From NCBI GenBank assembly GCA_052327205.1, contig CM126218.1, forward strand, positions 79,484,001 to 79,548,000: a stretch of DNA of 64,000 bases, read 5' to 3'. The stretch comes from Somniosus microcephalus (taxonomy: Eukaryota). Shown here piece by piece: positions 5,018 through 59,100 of this stretch. Position numbers and translations under genes: made by a program. Every line of letters begins with the position of its first letter. Within the stretch, counting starts at the first letter, position 1. Under the pieces are notes generated by a model. The model was not told where the DNA came from, ran no database searches, and was given only the letters and a program-made list of their open reading frames with translations.

Positions 5018-6662
5018 CAAGGGCTCAGAGTTTCCTCAGGGCCTGGGGAATAATACAGGGGTAAAATTAATACCCTCAACTATGTCCACTATCCTGGCTT
5101 GTACCCCACTCCCCTACTCTGAAATGTAATTGTTTAATTAAAGAGACCCATTGAGGTGATAAAGTCAGGTAGGAGTCGAGTCTTTGCTCTGAGGAATAAG
5201 TGAGGTGAATTCCTGATCGAAGTCTGTGCCGGGCGGAAGGTCTATCCACCACATGGAAGGTCCACCATGCTGGAAGGAGATGGGATCTTTATCCCTGCTG
5301 GATTTCATGCAGCTACCCCCTCCCCCCTCCCCCCCCCTCCATTGTGCTGAACGATCCGGATGTCGGTAAGTTACCAGCATCCAGTTTTGTAAATTATTGG
5401 AAATGGGACCCACCGGCATAAGATGCTGGCAGGATCGGTAAATCAGCCATCTTATAAAATGGGCCATTTAAAAGAAAAATTGTAACCGTTGTCACCTGTC
5501 TGCCCGCTGAGCGGTTTGCCAGTGCCGCATCTTCCTCGCTCCCTCTCTCTCTACCGGGCACTCTAGTTGTACCGACAGTGCTGTGGGCGTCTGCCGGAGA
5601 TGCATAAAACAGCTGGCCCTGCCCTAACATCGGATACTCCATGGGGTCAAGAGCGGAGGTCAGCAGTGACAGAGTGGACCCGAGGATCCTCAGCCCCAAA
5701 GTCTTTCCACAGTTAGATTGACAGATGGGTGGGTGGAATAACGTGGATGCAATGACGTTATTGGAAGCTTAAGTGACAATGGTGACAGTGCCCCTTTAAG
5801 GACTACCCAGCTTCCATTAGTCAACAATTATCTTCTATATGGAAACTAATTATATCATCACAGGCAACATCATAGAGTGGTGTTTAATCTCTACTCTCCA
5901 TGCGAATGTTTTCGAAGTGTCTGGAACATATTCCACTAGTGACTCTGAAGTTATCATGAATGAAGAATTTGGCTTTTGGACATATAATATACTGTAACTG
6001 TCAAATGTTTAGACAAAACCTCCCACTGGGAAGCACAGATTTCATTTAGGATTTTCTTAATACAGGAAACTCCTGCCAGTCCGGTTCTTTTAAAATCTTT
6101 GGAACCGTTACAGTATCTACAAAAATACTGTAATTTATTGAAGAAAGAAAATAGGAGAAGCACCACTGTATTTATGTTTACATTTACAGAAACATTCAAA
6201 GTTATTTCCTCATTCTCTGTGTGATTAACTTCAGTTCACGATGATCCAATTTTGTAGCGTATTGCTGTTCTCCCATCTTTCCCTGCAAGAGAATCCCTGT
6301 CGGGACAATGTGCAGAACTGTGTCAGTCCTCAACTTAGCCAGAATGTGGATGCCTTGCAATAAACTGATATCAAGTAAAATTTAACTGTCTTGTCCAATT
6401 ATTTTTTTAATTCATTCACGGGATGTGGGCGTCACTGGCAAGGCCAGCATTTATTGCCCATCCCTGATTGCCCCTTGGGAAGGTGGTGGTGAACCACCTT
6501 CTTGAACCGCTGCAGTCCGCGTGGTGAAGGTACTCCCACAGTGCTGTTAGGGAGGGAGTTCCAGGATTTTGGCCCAGCGATGATGAAGGATCGGCCGATA
6601 TACTTCCAAGTCCAAATGATAATGACTTTAGTGTTTATCTTCTCATACAATAATCCTTACAT

Positions 6663-49098: not shown

Positions 49099-50574
49099 TT
49101 TATCCAGGCACAGGGAACTGACTCAGAAATGGGCGCGCCCGTATTTCTAGGCCCTCTGCCCACTTGCATTGTGTTGGCGCCCTCAATAATCCGAAGTGTG
49201 GAAAAAAGCTCACAGCGTAGCTAGCTCTGACAGAATGAGACGTAATTAGGGGAGATGATTTAGCGCAGTGTGACAAATCCTGCCACTTTCTGCACCTACC
49301 GCTGCTCAAGTACCACAATCTTGCATGAAAAGTCGCTCGCTGTACATTTAATCGTATGCAAATTAAAACAAAACCTAATTATCTTTATGCTAATAGGCCA
49401 TTTTAGGAAAAGACTTCTAAGGTAGCGTTTTTTTCTTTTCCACGGGCAATATAAGATGTGGATCAGACGGTCCTTGTTGTTGGTAAAATTTTAATGAAAC
49501 ATGGAATAAGTACATAAAACCACCGAGGGAATAAAAGCGGCCGTAGTGACTGGCCTTTTAATATATGATTTAGTATAAATACCAGATGAAGCAGGAAAGC
49601 CCACTGTACTGCATTCTTAGCTGTCGGCCGAGAGAAGAGAGAAACACTTTATCAGCTGCGAGAGCCGCCGTGCGAGGGAGGTTATATTTTGTTTTTCCGT
49701 CATGAATGATTTTTCAGGAGACGGGGCTGCGAGCTATCAATTACCCTCGCGAGCTCAGCCTCTGGTTCCCCCGGACCCACTTCCATCCAAACCCACCCCC
49801 ACCTCCCCCCGTGGCTCAGAGGTTCGGTGGTTGAGTTGAGACCTGGTCCCAGACCAGCCATAAATGTCTTAATGCGTTTGAGTGGAGGTGGGTCAGTTCT
49901 GAAGACAGCAGACACTTGGGCTTCAGTTTTTTTTCTCTCGCTTCTTTCCCTTTTGCTTACGGTTCAGCCACATTGCCGTTCAAAGAGGGCAGCCAGGATA
50001 GCCTGCATAAATATTACTCATTTCACCGTGACTCTTGTTATTAAATGAAAGCCACGCTGTTTTTACACGGTTGGGGAGTTTTGAATGTCCTGAATATTAG
50101 CTTTCAACTCTATAGATGATTAAAATGAACCTGTGGAGCAATAAGTGTGTACAGTGCCTGATAGTGTTGTGTCATCGGCTGTCATTTTAATTATGTATTA
50201 AATTATCTTTATAAATATTGCATAAAATTTATTACCTGACTGAGGCACTTCTGCAATGTTCCAATTCCAGGCCCCTGATTGTGTTTACTTTAATAGAAGT
50301 GTGCTCACCAAGTTTTGTTGGCCTTTGATCCCTGTTCTTTTATTTCAAGGTTTTTAAGCTAATTCAACAAAATTTACACGCTTTTCTAAGTTAGGACATT
50401 TTAGAGGCTCCTCGACACAGCACGTGCAATGAGAGAGTGCTACATTTCATTATTGAGAGTGTGCAGAGTCAGGGTCCCTCCATGTAACGGGAGGAACTCG
50501 GACCAAGCTTCTAATAATCCAGCAAATATTATAGGCCCAGAAATTCGGGTCAGAGGCTTCCCGCGGGTGCAAGC

Positions 50575-50828
50575 TGTAGTGTATGTATCCGTCTACCTTT
50601 AAGAAAACCATTGTATGTAACCGTTCACCTTTAAGAGAACTATTTTAGGTGTGGCACTACTTTGTTGGCTTCTGTATACTGTAATACCGACGGCGACCAC
50701 ACCGGTATATAAGTGCTGTGTCAGGATTTATTTGGCAGATTCGCCCTGACCTTCGAATAGTAAAGTCCTGTTTTAAGTTACTCTGGTAGTCTGTGTATTA
50801 ATTAACTAAACAACCCACAGACTTTACA
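50575..50828 (+). repeat. 5' LTR (254 bp)
   Basis: TGTAGT...ACTTTACA; TATATAA at 50706-50712; AGTAAA polyA-like signal; near-identical to 55882-56135. Confidence 0.96.
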
Positions 50829-50829
50829 G

Positions 50830-50839
50830 TGGCGACGAG
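50830..50839 (+). promoter_or_regulatory. Primer binding site, tRNA-Ser(GCU)-type
   Basis: TGGCGACGAG 1 nt after the 5' LTR; complementary to the recalled 3' end of vertebrate tRNA-Ser-GCT (...CTCGTCGCCA). Confidence 0.85.
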
Positions 50840-51883
50840 TCCGATCGTACCCTGCGGCAACAATACTTCCGAAGCAGTTAACGAGCGTCGAGAAGAGGCA
50901 ACCGCCCTCGTCGTTCTGCTGGGAGAAAACGCGAGGCTGCAGAACTAGAAAGGAAGAAGAAGTTAGAGACAAAGACTTCCATCAGCAACAGGCACTGACT
51001 GTCCCTTCTGCCACGGTGAGGAGTGAGCCGATCAGCACGAGAAGCAAGGCGGCCACGGTGACTGTGAGTAAGGGAAAGTAAAAAGAATAACCGGAGGATA
51101 AGGGCGGTGCACTCGACCACGGTCGAGGGGGAAAGGAGCCGGACAGAAGTCGGGTCCAGAGGCGCTGAGACTGGGGCAGCGTGGAGCAAGGAAGCCGCGG
51201 TACAGACAGGCTGGGGGACGCAACGGCGTCGTGAGACAGCTAGACCGCGACCGGCGAAAAAGGCCGGGCAGCGACCGAAGCCACGAAGCGCTGCGACCGG
51301 GAGCGTAGGTGCGGGAAGAGATAAACTCAGCCGCAGCCGGGGAGGGAAGCACCGGACTGCGAGAGGGCTGGGAGGCGCGATTGGGAGCCGAGTGAGCGGG
51401 AGAGGCAGAGCCGACCAAGGGGGAACTGAGCGAGAGCCAGTCCAGCGGCTGAAACTGTTCTCCGTCAACGGGGTGTACCCAGCGCCGGTAGAGCCGAGCG
51501 AGCGGGTGAGAGACAGAGCCCGAGCAAGGGGAACCGAGCGAGAGCCAGCCCAGCGGCTGAAATTGTTCACCGTCAACGGGGTGTACCCAGCGCCGGTTGC
51601 CCTGCCGAGAAAAGGGAAAGCCCTGAAGCCGACGCGCAGGCTGTGAACCTGAAAGCCAGCGGCCGTCGCCCGTGGGGAAAGTGTACCCCTCCCGCGAGGG
51701 AAGAAACGCGGGAAGCCGCCATTAGGCGGGGAAGAAGACAGAAGCGGGAAACCGCCATTGAAGTGGGCGGGGAGAGAAGATAAGCGCGGGAAACCGCCAT
51801 TTTCGCGGGAACCGCCATCTTGAAAAAAAAAATAAAGGAAAATTTAAAGAAATAATTCGTGGTGTTATCAGGAAGAGAGGAAG

Positions 51884-54802
51884 ATGCCTAAGCGTGGTAA
51901 CATCAACGATTTTAATTCCGAGGTAGAAGACTGGGCCACGTATGTGGAACGCATTGAGATCTATTGTGAGGCCAATAAAATAGAAGAAGATGACAAAGCT
52001 ATAACCTTGCTAAACTCGATGGGCGCGAAGACATATGGGCTCTTGAAGCATCTACTAGCACCAGCTAAACAGGCGGATCAGACTTTCGAGGATATTGTGA
52101 CTGTTCTGAAGGACCACTTGAACCCCACACCGTTGATGTTGGCAGAACGATTCAAATTCTATGCGAGAACGCAAAGGAAAGACGAAAGCAACGCAGAATA
52201 CTTGGTCGAACTGCGTAGACTAGCGAAACACTGCCAGTTTGGAGGGAATCTGACAGAGGCATTGCGAGACAAGTTCGTGTGCGGGTTGTCAAAGGAAGGA
52301 ACGCAAAAGCGACTACTCGAAGAGAACGACCTTACACTTGACAGGGCTGTCCTTATTGCAGCATCGCACGAAGCCGCAGTGAAGGGAACTGCGGAAATGC
52401 AGCTAAAGGCAGCGGCACTCAGTGTGGATCAAATTACCTCGAGTACAACAAAATGCTATCGTTGTGGGAAGACAACACACGACCAGAACCAATGCTGGTT
52501 TAAGAGCCAGGAATGTAGGAAATGTGGCAAACTGGGTCACATAGCTAAGGTATGCCGGTCAGGGAAGAAGACCAACAACCAAAGGAAGCCATCACAGGAA
52601 AAGTACAACAAGGTACACAAGGTGGCTGAGAAGAGTTCAGACGAACAGAATTCGGACTCAGACCCAAACGGCCAGGAGCTGGGCAGTCTGAGAATTCACA
52701 ATGTGAGTAAGGAAGCTGACCTACAAACTATCTGGGTCATGCTAAAAATAGCTGGAGTCCAAGTGAAAATGGAGTTGGACACTGGATCAGCTCTATCAGT
52801 CATAAATCGAAGGGATTACCACCGGCTATTCTCACATATACCCTTAAGAGATACCAAGTTCGTATTGCAGACATACACGGGGCATAAAGTATATCCCATG
52901 GGGAAGATAAAAGTCAAGGTGAGAGATGGGGGTAAAGAACACCCAAGAATGAACTTATACGTACTACCTGAGGGAGGACCACCACTTCTGGGACGGGAGT
53001 GGATCAAGAAAATAGACATGGAATGGCACTATCTAAAAGCCATAACGAGTGAGGACTCGGTGCAGACAATCAGCTCAGATTCTGAAACGGATGACGATAA
53101 GACCAACCCAAATATGAAAGACAAGGCTAAAATGGACTTGTCGACTAAGGTTGGAAGAACGAAGGCATGCATAAAGGCTTATGCTCCAGAGAAGAACAAA
53201 GTTTCAGAACAGAACTCCACCGAACAACGACAACATAGTTTGACAGAGAATTCTGAGTCTGTTCAGTTTACGGACATATCCATGACTGACGAACACCGAG
53301 CTCGGACTCAACTTTATTTCAAATTACGACAGCAAGTAGAACAAGTGAGTTACCGTCTCGAACAAGAGATGAAAACAATGAAAAAGTTCTATGACACCGA
53401 ATGGGAGAATCTGGAAAGACAACAGAAGCAGCTAGCTCAAGCAGAGAGCGACCATAGAGCCATTGTGACCAATTACCGATCACATCTCCCTTATGCTGTT
53501 CAGGAGGTAGAATATTTGCAGGAAGGAGCAAATGAAGAGGAATCTTCAGGAAGCCAGGATTTTATTCCCGTTCTTCTCTACGACTCCTTACAAGCAGAGT
53601 TTGAGAAGTTGAAGGAACAGTATGAACAGGCCCAGGCTACAATCCTGGAGGGGATTAACTCGGCAACCTCCGAAAAGCTAGTTTCAGTAGAAGCATATGA
53701 GCAACTAAAGGTTGAACATGAGCAAGAAGTCCAAAGGCTGCAGGAAATTCTTGATGAGCTCAAGGCCAAGACAGACTCATCGGTAGAAGTTCCATCCATA
53801 GATGAGAAATTAGAGGTGAAAGACATGGCAGAACATGAAAGACAAGATGTCCAAGAACTCATAAAAATATTGAAGGAAACCCAAGACAAATATGAGGCGG
53901 CAATGACCGAGGTTCAACAACTTGAAGAACAGATTCAACTGGGAATCCTTTCAGTGGAAGAAAAGGAAACTGTAAGAAACACAGAGGCTGTAAGAATGGC
54001 CCCTGAACATGAGCTAGAGAGCATCAAGGCGCAACTTCTCCGAGCGCTGGAAGCCAAAGTACAAGAGGAAAAGAAGGTGAAAGCATTGGAGGAAAAGGTG
54101 GATGAAATGGAGAAGACTCTGATCCACAGTGTTCCCGTGGAAGAGTTAACGGTCAGCCAACTCCTTCATATGCTGAGGGACAAGACTCTGCAATGGGAAC
54201 AATCTGAACACGAGCTTCAATCTTCAAAGGGAAGGAGTTCGGAGCTCTCAAAAGTTATGGAAATAGCTGAGGTTGCAACACAGATTTTACTGGGATGCCA
54301 AAAGTACGCTGAATCACGTCTATGTGAACAACAGAATGTTGAAACAGCTGCTCCAGTAGAAGGATTGAATAGCCCGATCAATCAATCCCCAATGGAAGGG
54401 GAAGTGTTGAAATCACAAATGAGGTCATTAGTGAAGGATTTGCAGGAAACCCAGGAAGAGCGGGATGAATATGAACGCATGAAAAAGTCTCTTCAGGAAA
54501 GATGTCTAGGGAGGGAACAACAGTCGGCTAACGTCCAGTTGGGTAAGGAAGAAGTAGCAGGCCCTCTCGCTAGACTAGTTCAGGACGACACCGAATATTA
54601 CCATGACCTGTTGAGTGACACGGAATATTACGAGGACTTGGCCTGCCCAGCTTGTGATGAAAACTCCCAAAGTGCAGAAATCAGGATGAAGCACTTAAAG
54701 TCTAAGGAACATAGGGAGATGGTGGCGCTACAGCTGGCAGCTGATAAGGGAGCCCCGAGAGTCTCCAAGAAGCAGAAAAGAAAAAGACAAAGCAGAAGGT
54801 GA
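51884..54802 (+). CDS. Chimeric retrotransposon polyprotein: Gag (two CCHC knuckles) + aspartic protease + captured host coiled-coil/zinc-finger mosaic
   Basis: Uninterrupted 972-aa ORF. Mag-type Gag N-terminus (EDWATYVER...[11 protein letters not shown]). Knuckles [14 protein letters not shown] and [14 protein letters not shown] (52454-52555). Protease LDTGSA (DTG at 52778-52786) and LLGREW. Then an E/Q/K-rich region resembling STK10, ANKRD24 and DNAJC21. Confidence 0.92.
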   Translation: [972 protein letters not shown]

Positions 54803-54805
54803 TAA

Positions 54806-55081
54806 CCATCTAAATCATTATCACTTCTACCAGATCATGTACGTGGGCCCTACGAAGGGAGCCAAATCAGTTGGCAAGTAGGAAAAATTACCAAGGCAGT
54901 CCAGCTGTTTGTAAAAGTCAGCACTGCTGGTTCAGCAGGACGGAAGTTCAAGCTGTTAAGTCAAGGGAAAGACTATTGGATGAGTCACGCTAGCAATGTG
55001 AACCGGCTACACCACAGAGATGTTGTTCGGACCGAGTCAAGACCAGAGACTGAATCTGTGAACTGTTCCCGCAGAGACTGA
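54806..55081 (+). pseudogene. Probable degenerate integrase C-terminal (GPY/F-region) remnant
   Basis: Open in the same frame after TGA TAA: DHVRGPYEGSQISWQVGKITKAV...KDYWMSHASNVNRL, resembling the W-x-x-G-x-I...W-x-x-H-x-x-x-L/V pattern of Mag-type IN tails. Confidence 0.5.
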
Positions 55082-55147: not shown

Positions 55148-55832
55148 GGCCTAGAAATTGAGTTTTGGCGCAGCCAGGGCTTTAGCGCCGGAAGTTAGTG
55201 CCGGAGCTAAGTCGCGCTGGTCGGGCCCAAAATTCACCAATTCTGCGCCCAAACGGCTGCCGGCGCTGCTGAGAGCTGTTTGCGCCTGAAAACTGGCGCT
55301 ACGCGCTGAATATCGGCGCTATTCCGGCGCTGCGGCGCCCGCTGCAGTGCGGCAGGTTCGGGAAGTGCAGGCCTCCTCCTTCCCTTAAGGAGGAGCTGCC
55401 TGCACCCGGCCGCGGCCCGCGAAAATCTTTTTAAAAATGAGCCCGGCACCTCAGACAAGTGCCGGGCTTGCTTCTGTTCCGGGGGGGGGTGGGGGGAAGC
55501 CGGGGAGAGAGCTGCGGCCAGGCGGCCGGCGGGAAAGCGGCCGGCCGCCGCGGTGCCTTTAATGCGCCGGCGCAAAGTCATGTAAGACTCTGTTGCCAGA
55601 GTCTTAGTTGCGGCTGCCACGGGCGAGGCGGCCGCAACTGAATTTCGGCGCTGGGGCCCGTCGGCATGGCAACCGGGACGCTGCGCACACCGATGACGTC
55701 ATCGGTGCCAGCGCAGCGCTACCGGTCTACCGCGGCGGAAGGGCCCCAGGCAATTTCGGCGCCGGCGCCAATTGCAGCGCTAGGCCCTCTAGCGCCGCAA
55801 AATCGGCGCTAAGGGCACTGAATTTCTAGGCC
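55148..55832. mobile_element. GC-rich PIF/Harbinger-like MITE inside the LTR element
   Basis: TIRs GGCCTAGAAATT...AATTTCTAGGCC; 3-bp TSD GTT on both sides. Confidence 0.85.
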
Positions 55833-55868: not shown

Positions 55869-55880
55869 AAAAAGGGAGGA
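55869..55880 (+). promoter_or_regulatory. Polypurine tract
   Basis: AAAAAGGGAGGA 1 nt before the 3' LTR. Confidence 0.9.
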
Positions 55881-55881
55881 T

Positions 55882-56135
55882 TGTAGTGTATGTATCCGTC
55901 TACCTTTAAGAAAACCATTGTATGTAACCGTTCACCTTTAAGAGAACTATTTTAGGTGTGGCACTACTTTGTTGGCTTCTGTATACTGTAATACCGACGG
56001 TGACCACACCGGTATATAAGTGCTGTGTCAGGATTTATTTGGCAGATTCGCCCTGACCTTCGAATAGTAAAGTCCTGTTTTAAGTTACTCTGGTAGTCTG
56101 TGTATTAATTAACTAAACAACCCACAGACTTTACA
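55882..56135 (+). repeat. 3' LTR (254 bp)
   Basis: Direct repeat of the 5' LTR, preceded by the PPT and followed by TSD CAAGC. Confidence 0.96.
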
Positions 56136-59100
56136 CAAGCCTCCGACCTGCACTTACCTAGCGCACCGGCCGTTGTGCTGTGGGCCCGCGTGGCATTCCG
56201 ATCCTGGGCCTGCTCCAACTGCTGGCGTGCAGTGCTTTCGTATCCCAGGGGCGCAGTTAGCTCGAAGCGTCTCCTGAGATCACGTGGGCCATGGAGAGCC
56301 AATGGTAGCAGGGAATCTGTATTCATAGATTTGACAGGAAGACCTGTCAAATCTATGAATACAATTCAGCCCCAAAACACAACTAAAGCTTCAAATAATT
56401 TTTTTTTAAAACATCACATTTTTAAAATAACTATAAATTACATAAAATAACTATTTTAAACAATAATTTACATTTTTTGAAAAAATTAATTACGGTTTCT
56501 AACAGGGCTAAAAATAAACTTACCTTTCTTTAAAGTATTTAAAAATAATAAACCTGTGGAAAAAATGTTTTAATTTTACTTAATTCACCACTTACCTTGT
56601 TAAAAGCAGGCCTTGCGACTGCTTTTTAGAAGCGTAGCTCCTGGAGACCTACCCTCCCGGAGAAACCTGTAAAAAAATCGGAAGTTCCAGGCATACGCGC
56701 TGCCTCTCCGGCGCACGCGTTCGACCTGTGAACCCCTCCTTTAAGAGAACGGAAGTTCCGGTTTCCCACGCATGCACAGTGCATGCATGAAACCTGCACT
56801 TTCGTTGGGCCTACGCGTGTGTACCCAACGCGTACTCACCCGTGGGGACCCGAATATCTGGCCCATTAATATTTCAGGTTTACCCTTGTCCACATATACT
56901 AGGGGGACCATGTTTTCTAAACCGAATCTGGGGACACACAGGGCGGGAGCACAGCAAAGTAGCCAGGATGGAAAATGTAGGTTGTGCAGCGTAGCAAGGC
57001 AAGATTTTTGTTATTTTGATGCCAACTGAATCTGCAAAAAGTAGCGCCAGAGCTTTCCACTTGAATAATGCGGCCGCTGTTCACAGCGTCTGCTGGCCGC
57101 AATCATCAGCTGCTTCCCCCTCCTTGCAGCCCGACACTCACCCACACCATCCGAGGCCGCCGAGGGCACTCTGATTCGGCTCACAGCCGGGCTCCACCCA
57201 CCGCTCATTAGTCCGGTTACCAGCTGGTCCCGCCCGCCCCCCCCCCCCCCCATTACTCGGACAGTTTAGCTCCGGGTCCAATTTCTCTTCAATCGAATTT
57301 CACCGGACTATCAGGGGTGGTTGGGAGTTGTTGGTGGGGGGATGCGGAGCACGCGTACTGCAGCCACAGAGTGTGATCTCTGCATAAATTAAAGCCCCTC
57401 GGTGAGTCCACCCCTTCGACTGGTTGAAGACAGGAGATTGACAGCCCGCCCACCAATCGGAACCTGTCCCACCGCACAGTCCCACCCACTTCATTGACCG
57501 GCCGCAGGGCAGCTCGGGGACTGTCCCCGGAAAACGAGGACGTACGGTCACCCTAATGTATAGCGACGCTTAAATCTCGAGAATGAGATGACGCTGTGTA
57601 TCTAAGCATATAGACTCATTATCCTTTCCATGTGATGCCCAGATCATGGCAGTGATAATGGGAATGGATGGCAGAAGATGCAAAGTGTCTAATTATGAGT
57701 AGCTCTCCCAATAGCTCAGTCACAACGTATACTTAGAGTGATACAGTTACATACAGACCAAGAAAGCCCCAGGCTTGACCCACAGTCTGTGCAATGTCAG
57801 ATGATCTCAACCAATGCTGCAGGAGAGGCACTACAATTGGCCTCCGCTCCCCTCAACTAGGGAGGGGGAAATAAAACAACCAGAGTTCCTGGTGGCAAGC
57901 CAGCAGGACCTACAGGAAAGTGTGCCAGTGTGGATATTGGGCGAGGCCAACCCTCAGCTGTTATGCCCTTCACATTCACAAGTAGGGTGCTGGCACTCAC
58001 CATGCAGGCAGATTAATAAAGAATGGTCTATACATTTGTGGGTGTCCATGGGCCTGTACCCCAGGAAGAATCAATGCCTTCAGGAGAGATCATGACTAAT
58101 TGGAAGAAGCATTTTGTAAGGCACGCAATAGCCAAAAAAGGCAAATATTGATTCGAGTATAAGCTTATGAGGTAATACAGTTAGAGTGTTGTGTGCAGTC
58201 GATGCCACCATGCTTCACAAAGAGATATTCTTGCAGAGAAGAGCAACAGAGATGATCCAAGAGATAAAGGGATGAGCTATGACGGGAAATGGAGCACAGC
58301 TCAAGTGTGCAAGATGTATAAAATATTAAATGGAAAAGATGAACCCCAAACATTAATTCAAGGTCAATAGGGCCATAGAACATAAATGGGAAGGATGATA
58401 AATATTTTGATTATCTGCCAGGTAAGGTCGTAGGATATTTAAAATGCAGTTGGACGTCGGACCAGGTGAGTTGCAGCAGCAGAGCTTCAATGGGCTGAAT
58501 GGCCTCTTCTCACCCATGGACTTCCTGCGATCTTATCTGCACTAACCCCGCCCCCCCCACCCCAACCCCACCCTCCCTCCCACCCACCCCCCACCCCAGG
58601 AAGGAGAGAAAATTAATCAAGGAGAGGAAGATATTACATTAAGTCTGACCCTCAAGCAAAAACTAGTGAGCAAAGGCAGGGGCAGCAAGGGGAAAAAAAT
58701 GAAAAGAATTGTGGGAATAAGCAGGAAGTAACCAGACAAGAAATGTCAATAAGCAGGGCAGACCGAGATTTTGGAACATGTCAGCTTTAAGAACCAGAGT
58801 TAACTGAAACTCTTCAAAATCCCTTTTCAGAAATGAGGGAATGGGCGGACGGGTCAAGCTGCTGTCACATCCCATACCGCAGACAGGCGTCAATTAGAGC
58901 CCATATTAATGCTCTAAGTGGTTCAGAGGTTATGTAAACAGCTATTTTTACAAGTAGGTATACTACAAGCCTGATTGTTTGTTTGGATGGCCTTAAAATG
59001 GCTATTGGAGTCCAGCAAGCCAACCCCCAGAGAGCGGAGCTTTGTTTTCTCTGATTGGAAGATATTAGGAGCTGGCTCCATGGTGCAGGTGGCCTCCTGG

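Follow-up and report, generated by a model that had tools for sequence, protein, structure and literature searches.

The window analysed here, 64,000 nucleotides of the Somniosus microcephalus assembly GCA_052327205.1 (contig CM126218.1, positions 79,484,001 to 79,548,000, forward strand), carries a mobile element whose single open reading frame (ORF) runs from Gag and an aspartic protease into sequence from four host genes fused in frame: STK10, a gene of the ankycorbin family, optineurin and DNAJC21. From its paired long terminal repeats (LTRs), target-site duplication (TSD), primer-binding-site (PBS)-like motif and polypurine tract (PPT), it is classed as a non-autonomous Gypsy LTR element. 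The family to which it belongs has very probably replaced its reverse transcriptase (RT), RNase H and integrase with host RNA through template-switch capture, twice drawing on circular RNAs (circRNAs). The captured pieces are of RNA origin, two of them contain exact back-splice junctions, capture ends are shared between families, the pieces meet at microhomologies, and the elements are amplified and transcribed. The window element is a member of family A; relatives with other cargo are called families B and C and form D. Its features are:

50570..50574 (left) and 56136-56140 (right): 5-bp TSD
50575..50828, plus strand: 5' LTR, 254 nt, TG...CA, differing from the 3' LTR at one position
50830..50839, plus strand: PBS-like motif directly after the 5' LTR, its start identical in family B
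51884..54802, plus strand: single ORF (ATG at 51884, stop at 54800-54802) encoding Gag, protease and host cargo
51884..52561, plus strand: Gag, with two CCHC zinc knuckles (amino acids 202-238) and matches to PDB nucleocapsid entries
52736..53020, plus strand: aspartic protease, PF13975 and PF13650 above cut-off
53047..53277, plus strand: STK10 exon 8 piece (linker), 83.6% nucleotide identity to the host
53288..53433, plus strand: 3' part of STK10 exon 10 spliced at 53374|53375 to the 5' part of exon 11, encoding the start of the PKK coiled coil
53429..53503, plus strand: last bases of ankycorbin-family exon n-2, spliced onto the complete penultimate exon of 66 nt (host C13:62.86-62.88 Mb)
53503..53504, plus strand: exact back-splice junction that joins the penultimate exon, at its end, to the beginning of the large exon upstream
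53504..54146, plus strand: first 214 codons of the large ankycorbin-family coiled-coil exon, 97.4% nucleotide identity to the host
54140..54555 (end approximate), plus strand: optineurin exons 5 (3' part), 6, 7 and 8 (5' part), spliced and in linear order, 84-94% nucleotide identity to host C17:85.88 Mb
54556..54799 (start approximate), plus strand: DNAJC21-derived degenerate zinc finger and basic tail
54799..54984, plus strand: end of STK10 exon 7 and start of exon 8, now a non-coding remnant, ending at host base C8:167196995, an end point shared with families B and C
55148..55832: insertion resembling a miniature inverted-repeat transposable element (MITE), a later arrival with terminal inverted repeats and a 3-bp TSD, missing from all nine other family A loci that reach the region
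55869..55881, plus strand: PPT
55882..56135, plus strand: 3' LTR

A probable circular origin of the founding cargo can be read from family B. The cargo of the family B locus L039 consists of STK10 exon 8 (3' part), 9, 10, 11, 7 and 8 (5' part), in that order and 98-99% identical to the host, with the end of exon 11 joined exactly, as donor to acceptor, to the start of exon 7. This back-splice is present in all 10 family B loci examined (out of 47) with zero or one mismatch in 40 nt, as are the four ordinary STK10 splice junctions. Host exons 7 to 11 add up to 1,245 nt without a stop codon; the family B cargo is 1,259 nt long, that is one turn plus 14 nt, starts and ends at one and the same host motif in exon 8, and reads as 416 codons that run colinear with the 415-codon circle when this is written twice. 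The founding capture, as reconstructed from these copies, was thus one full turn of STK10 exons 7 to 11, entered and left at a short exon 8 motif and including the back-splice. The second case is found in the window itself, where the ankycorbin-family back-splice is exact on both exon ends. The junction recurs in each of 30 family A loci (the first 30 of 150 matches) with two to four mismatches in 40 nt, and a 30-base pattern spanning it has 1,881 genomic matches (control, 0). The three ankycorbin-family exons concerned total 1,743 nt, also without a stop, and both circle lengths are divisible by three. At both back-splice sites the host exons are bounded by AG and GT, and the host tiles (120 kb for STK10, 40 kb for the ankycorbin-family gene) hold a single copy of each exon, with no tandem duplication.

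The initial annotation had taken 53288-53431 to be a captured coiled-coil segment of STK10 or SLK, lacking the kinase domain. The translation is exactly the one it gave, and the identity holds: the segment scores 29 bits against Pfam PKK (PF12474, cut-off 25, E 1.4e-6), 35 of its 48 residues are identical to the STK10 of the host genome in an alignment without gaps, and the cargo region matches named STK10 proteins of Narcine and Latimeria. Searched against the STK10 gene of the same genome (G000:C8:167.166-167.279 Mb), it resolves into parts of exon 10 (81% nucleotide identity) and exon 11 (90%), exons being numbered by our own count of tblastn exon matches. The intron between them is absent at 53374|53375, and since the segment spans an exon-exon junction it is of RNA origin. 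By sequence comparison the donor is STK10 and not SLK, because the sister copies are 98-99% identical to the gene at C8:167 Mb, which has STK10-like kinase exons (86-92% identity to those of Narcine STK10, with the next paralogue at 65-84%; kinase exons rather than SLK coiled-coil exons being compared). SLK was therefore rejected as donor, as was chance coiled-coil likeness as the source of the segment; capture at the DNA level was rejected as well, every cargo piece being devoid of introns. As the annotation supposed, no kinase catalytic region is present in the element, which is accordingly not a functional STK10 kinase gene. Where it fell short is in extent: its segment is a genuine STK10 piece but one of three in the element, the others lying at 53047-53277 and about 54799-54984, and together they are the remnant of a larger permuted-exon capture within a four-gene mosaic.

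The remaining donors were identified in the same genome. Residues 400-984 of the ORF match ankycorbin/ANKRD24-like proteins, optineurin and STK10, the best protein matches coming from sharks and rays. The donor on C13 has shark orthologues that databases name ankycorbin or ANKRD24-like, hence our term ankycorbin-family. For the C-terminal piece no match was found in the 90%-cluster protein database, and its Atlas scores, under 0.9, were uninformative. A lead through PF21884 ended at another gene on C17, presumably DNAJC2-like, and was abandoned; nor was a donor present at a guessed synteny site 160 kb beyond a RAI14-like paralogue on C2. DNAJC21 on C1 was found instead, through P0037, with two exons at C1:4.79 Mb matching 54682-54731 (84%) and 54758-54798 (91%); the exon for the CxxC half was not seen in the 43 kb of host sequence examined. 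Part of this piece (54580-54650) is a short internal tandem duplication in which the repeated stretch is acidic and contains tyrosine. The last DNAJC21 exon occurs with equal score on C1 and on the small contig C1211 (L109, L110), probably a duplicated haplotype. In the assembled host optineurin (L080:4770-4800, 5345-5380), two single bases near the junction of exons 5 and 6 seem to be inserted when it is compared with the Heptranchias protein and with the copies in the elements; either the assembly is wrong here or the allele is broken. The joins between cargo pieces that could be read fall at microhomologies of 4-9 nt in five cases and of 4 nt in a sixth, with the frame kept; these were judged by eye, without a shuffle control.

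The assembly searched amounts to 6.45 Gb. The 48 residues of the annotated segment gave at least 150 matches, all 150 of those listed being 100% identical, and by hand count about 60 of the 150 lie in frames of at least 981 codons while about 90 have a broken or shortened frame. Ten whole family A loci with long frames are 94-99% identical to the window element, and family A appears to be young, with roughly 1,900 copies. The multiple copies, with 1,881 matches and window LTRs differing at one position in 254, are not what is expected of a domesticated host gene; that reading was rejected, as the elements retain the marks of mobility, and 5-bp TSDs are visible by eye in at least 21 of the 27 loci with paired LTRs. 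With the whole of STK10 as query, family B was recovered in 47 of 47 scored candidates, giving at least 47 loci of a 3.85-kb element. Family C was examined at 10 loci among 20 non-host matches. It keeps the STK10 capture ends (5' in 10 of 10, within 3 nt; 3' in 9 of 10), shares the deletion from exon 8 to exon 10 with the window, and has optineurin exons 3-8 in linear order at the place of the former back-splice. In form D, STK10 exon 11 is joined almost directly to optineurin exon 5 without an ankycorbin-family piece (130 and 84 RNA reads; one DNA contig), and it is a likely predecessor of family A. The 3' capture end of STK10 is common to families B, C and A.

As far as these comparisons allow it to be read, the series is one of stepwise additions: C adds spliced optineurin, D loses parts and adds DNAJC21, and A adds the ankycorbin-family piece with its back-splice. 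Identity to the host fits an arrival order of STK10, optineurin and the ankycorbin-family piece, the placement of DNAJC21 resting on two short matches. In a Gag-protease tree of 24 individual copies A lies on a long branch (0.13) and B falls among the C copies; the protease-side history is therefore not a simple ladder, and recombination between families is likely. One older family A copy (L084:7041-10000 and L085:1-1965, G000:C13:62.867-62.872 Mb; 95.6% identical to the window element, with a broken frame) lies in reverse orientation within an intron of its own ankycorbin-family donor gene, probably by chance given the copy number. Three of 10 family B copies (L031, L034, L036) are located in tandem-repeat arrays. 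At L070, L075, L043, L046 and L076 autonomous Gypsy relatives adjoin or enclose cargo elements, which appear to be nested in L070 and L075.

The element-borne part of the window copy is that of a Gypsy-type element short of its Pol enzymes. Its LTRs are identical at 253 of 254 positions, and the PBS-like motif at 50830..50839 is one that we take to correspond to tRNA-Ser. Measured from stop to stop the ORF has 984 codons, beginning at 51848; no RT, RNase H or integrase was found in it, which sets it apart from autonomous Gypsy elements. The Gag profiles Retrotrans_gag and zf-CCHC remain below cut-off in this ORF, and Gag-protease is 82% identical in amino acids to that of family B. The long purine-rich 5' leader includes two 108-nt tandem copies (51385-51597), and many leader length variants are seen in reads. 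The MITE-like insertion (685 bp, GC-rich, with related pieces in L042 and L029) is probably very recent, because the LTRs of the element that hosts it differ at one base.

The single-ORF layout, two-knuckle Gag and protease are shared with the autonomous Gypsy elements L075 and L063, as are a similar post-protease linker and integrase tail; both elements presumably belong to the Mag clade, judging from Gag and the single-ORF layout. They differ from the window element in having RT, RNase H and integrase (in Gypsy order in L075), no cargo, and only 66-69% nucleotide identity in gag. The mechanism we propose is that host RNAs, twice circular, were packaged together with element RNA in particles, where the RT of an autonomous helper would have switched templates at microhomologies, as modelled in the main text of Tan et al. 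2016 (PMC5131818). The chimeric RNA would keep its LTRs, PBS and PPT, make its own Gag-protease and be copied in trans. RNase H is known to remove the template behind RT, and its destruction of the circle behind the enzyme would explain why about one turn was copied.

Transcription was assessed in the raw reads of two RNA runs, X8 and X9, both of which cover all 30 bins of the element. In X8, 18,262 of 16.65 million reads fall on the element, and along the ORF the first mate maps to the minus strand 7 to 37 times more often than to the plus, which indicates sense transcription provided that the library was stranded in the usual way. The run index lists no RNA run with the element, and the DNA data sets that contain it bear three organism labels.

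A number of observations weigh against this account of the capture. The apparent derivation of two cargo pieces from circRNAs is read from junctions in DNA, and the optineurin and DNAJC21 pieces have no back-splice. A genome search for an empty-site element, with the post-protease linker beside the integrase tail, returned 0 matches, and no close helper was found among the loci examined, where gag of the autonomous relatives is distant; the element-side microhomologies of the founding capture are therefore largely putative. The families were found with protein queries, which favour in-frame members. X9 has no clear strand bias, and both runs may derive from a species other than the assembled one.

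Permuted exons could also stem from linear RNA, by trans-splicing or exon repetition, or from a tandem exon duplication since lost, and a back-splice junction in DNA cannot by itself distinguish these from a circle; similar caution about structured linear RNAs is expressed by Dong et al. 2016 (PMC4897178). We consider such an origin very unlikely, given that each exon is single-copy in the host tiles, that permutation occurred in two genes, and that the family B cargo is one unit plus 14 nt between two occurrences of the same motif, natural for a circle but a coincidence for a linear repeat. We likewise consider it very unlikely that RT template switches landed on exon ends by chance. The other joins in the lineage are indeed microhomology switches, and in the ankycorbin-family case 5 nt are common to the exon end and the end of the upstream intron, so that a switch onto partly spliced RNA could mimic a back-splice there; this would require one spliced and one unspliced template, however, and in STK10 the two exons are joined precisely at their ends, with only AG in common, whereas the switch junctions that can be mapped fall within exons or use one exon end only.

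What the cargo does is the least certain part of the proposal. Its amino-acid constraint is modest and uneven (p 0.009-0.05). Gag has a ratio of nonsynonymous to synonymous divergence (dN/dS) of 0.12-0.16 between families; comparison of window and host gives dS 0.56, dN 0.12 and dN/dS 0.22 for the annotated segment and dN/dS 0.23 for the ankycorbin-family exon. Most of this change lies on the element lineage, because a family B copy differs from the host by a dS of only 0.027 (family B rates come from one copy, those of family C from two). Rates of family C optineurin against the host were left out, as the assembled host gene shifts frame there. The corresponding polymorphism ratio (pN/pS) is 0.33 for shared cargo variants against 0.80 for singletons, our neutral yardstick (p = 0.03); p values for constraint are 0.02 for the ankycorbin-family exon and 0.009 for fixed differences against singletons when pieces are pooled including optineurin exons 6-8. 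The 31 family A copies compared contain 43 single-copy indels, 25 of which shift the frame; the sole shared indel does not. On the other side, Gag-protease singletons already stand at 0.46, making the baseline imperfect; p is 0.40 for the STK10 exon 8 piece, 0.05 for the annotated segment alone and 0.054 for the pool without optineurin exons 6-8; and dN/dS reaches 1.6 both in the optineurin exon 5 piece and, for the cargo, in one comparison of the window with another copy. Family A loci were chosen by identity in the annotated segment, and the STK10 values are biased accordingly.

The cargo may substitute for Pol as a soluble coiled coil, either a filler or an oligomeriser, that ends in a basic tail and has no kinase or signalling role, a proposal to which we give a little less than an even chance. 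We favour about equally the view that it is a passenger whose protein sequence is irrelevant, the frame being kept because an early stop would leave a destabilising long 3' untranslated region or because translation aids packaging in cis, which is compatible with the capture mechanism proposed above. Cargo has been freely swapped and deleted between families, several pieces are without significant constraint, and the many listed copies with damaged frames also speak for a passenger; the synonymous excess in the annotated segment, the ankycorbin-family exon and optineurin exons 6-8 speaks against it, as do the recurrence of coiled-coil regions from three unrelated donors and the greater divergence of the non-coding STK10 remnant (78.6%) than of the coding pieces of the same capture (81-90%). 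It is unlikely that the cargo serves as a decoy or dominant-negative on host pathways (STK10, optineurin-dependent autophagy) in the manner of an oncogene-transducing retrovirus. Family C does carry an optineurin exon with a motif that we take to be of LIR type (L071:4219-4403), and in family B the STK10 coiled-coil region is intact over its first part, but family A drops both that exon and most of STK10, and no kinase, ankyrin or ubiquitin-binding domain was found in any family examined.

Acutely transforming retroviruses likewise depend on helpers and carry gag-onc fusions, in which host coding RNA is in frame with gag and replaces pol; here no env is seen, the catalytic domains were not taken, and amplification occurred in the germ line. 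In LTR-mediated retroposition, as described in the main text of Tan et al. 2016 (PMC5131818), partial host RNA replaces the internal ORFs between LTRs. The shark elements, in which spliced host sequence replaces the internal ORF between LTRs, have in common with those cases microsimilarity at switch points, multi-gene chimeras and further non-autonomous rounds. That main text does not use the word 'circular' and its multi-site cases have few insertions, compared with about 1,900 copies, preserved intermediates, a 984-codon in-frame Gag-protease fusion and two back-splice junctions here. The maize element Bs1 (Elrouby and Bureau, as recounted in the same main text, PMC5131818) is also an LTR element, holding exon fragments from three host genes, and its copies share switch points; as presented there it is a plant element with one to five copies per species and no circRNA origin is mentioned, while ours combines four genes at high copy number in a vertebrate. 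From the other direction, Dong et al. 2016 (PMC4897178) reported circRNA-derived pseudogenes in mammalian genomes, such as that of mouse circRFWD2, by a mechanism they called mysterious. Like the shark junctions, circRFWD2 presents an exact non-colinear exon-exon junction in genomic DNA; it is multicopy (33) with LTR-rich flanks, and MMERVK10C-int appears in a figure legend (PMC4897178). In the shark, by contrast, the circle is enclosed by a pair of LTRs and accompanied by TSD, PBS and PPT; it makes a full turn, is fused to the Gag-protease frame and was followed by a second such capture in the lineage. The mouse case may represent the same process. LTR gene capture and circRNA-derived pseudogenes were thus known, and the combination described here was not found in the open literature, where our search (subscription papers lying outside it) yielded no report of the shark family, nor of a circle copied for a full turn and fused to Gag.

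Intact LTR elements here hold a complete turn of a circle whose motif of entry and exit is still present, and the lineage later made a second such capture. This points to template switching in LTR particles, and this route for the write-back of circRNAs, a mechanism left open by Dong et al. 2016 (PMC4897178), becomes testable. The copies would constitute a fossil record of circRNAs in the shark germ line, and the graded families record with unusual completeness how a mobile element shuffles exons in frame. On the practical side, about 1,900 copies 97% identical to a host exon, together with many near-identical STK10 copies, are expected to distort gene counts, expression estimates and circRNA calls in these species. 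A broader suggestion, which we regard as doubtful at present, is that circRNAs are a favoured substrate of LTR capture, repeatedly used for a selected coiled-coil Pol substitute that helps the element compete for its helper; circles are stable, and those that are stopless and divisible by three in length could prolong the Gag-protease frame whatever the point of entry. If this is true, the element would be a circRNA-fed vehicle of exon shuffling, present in thousands of copies in a vertebrate germ line.
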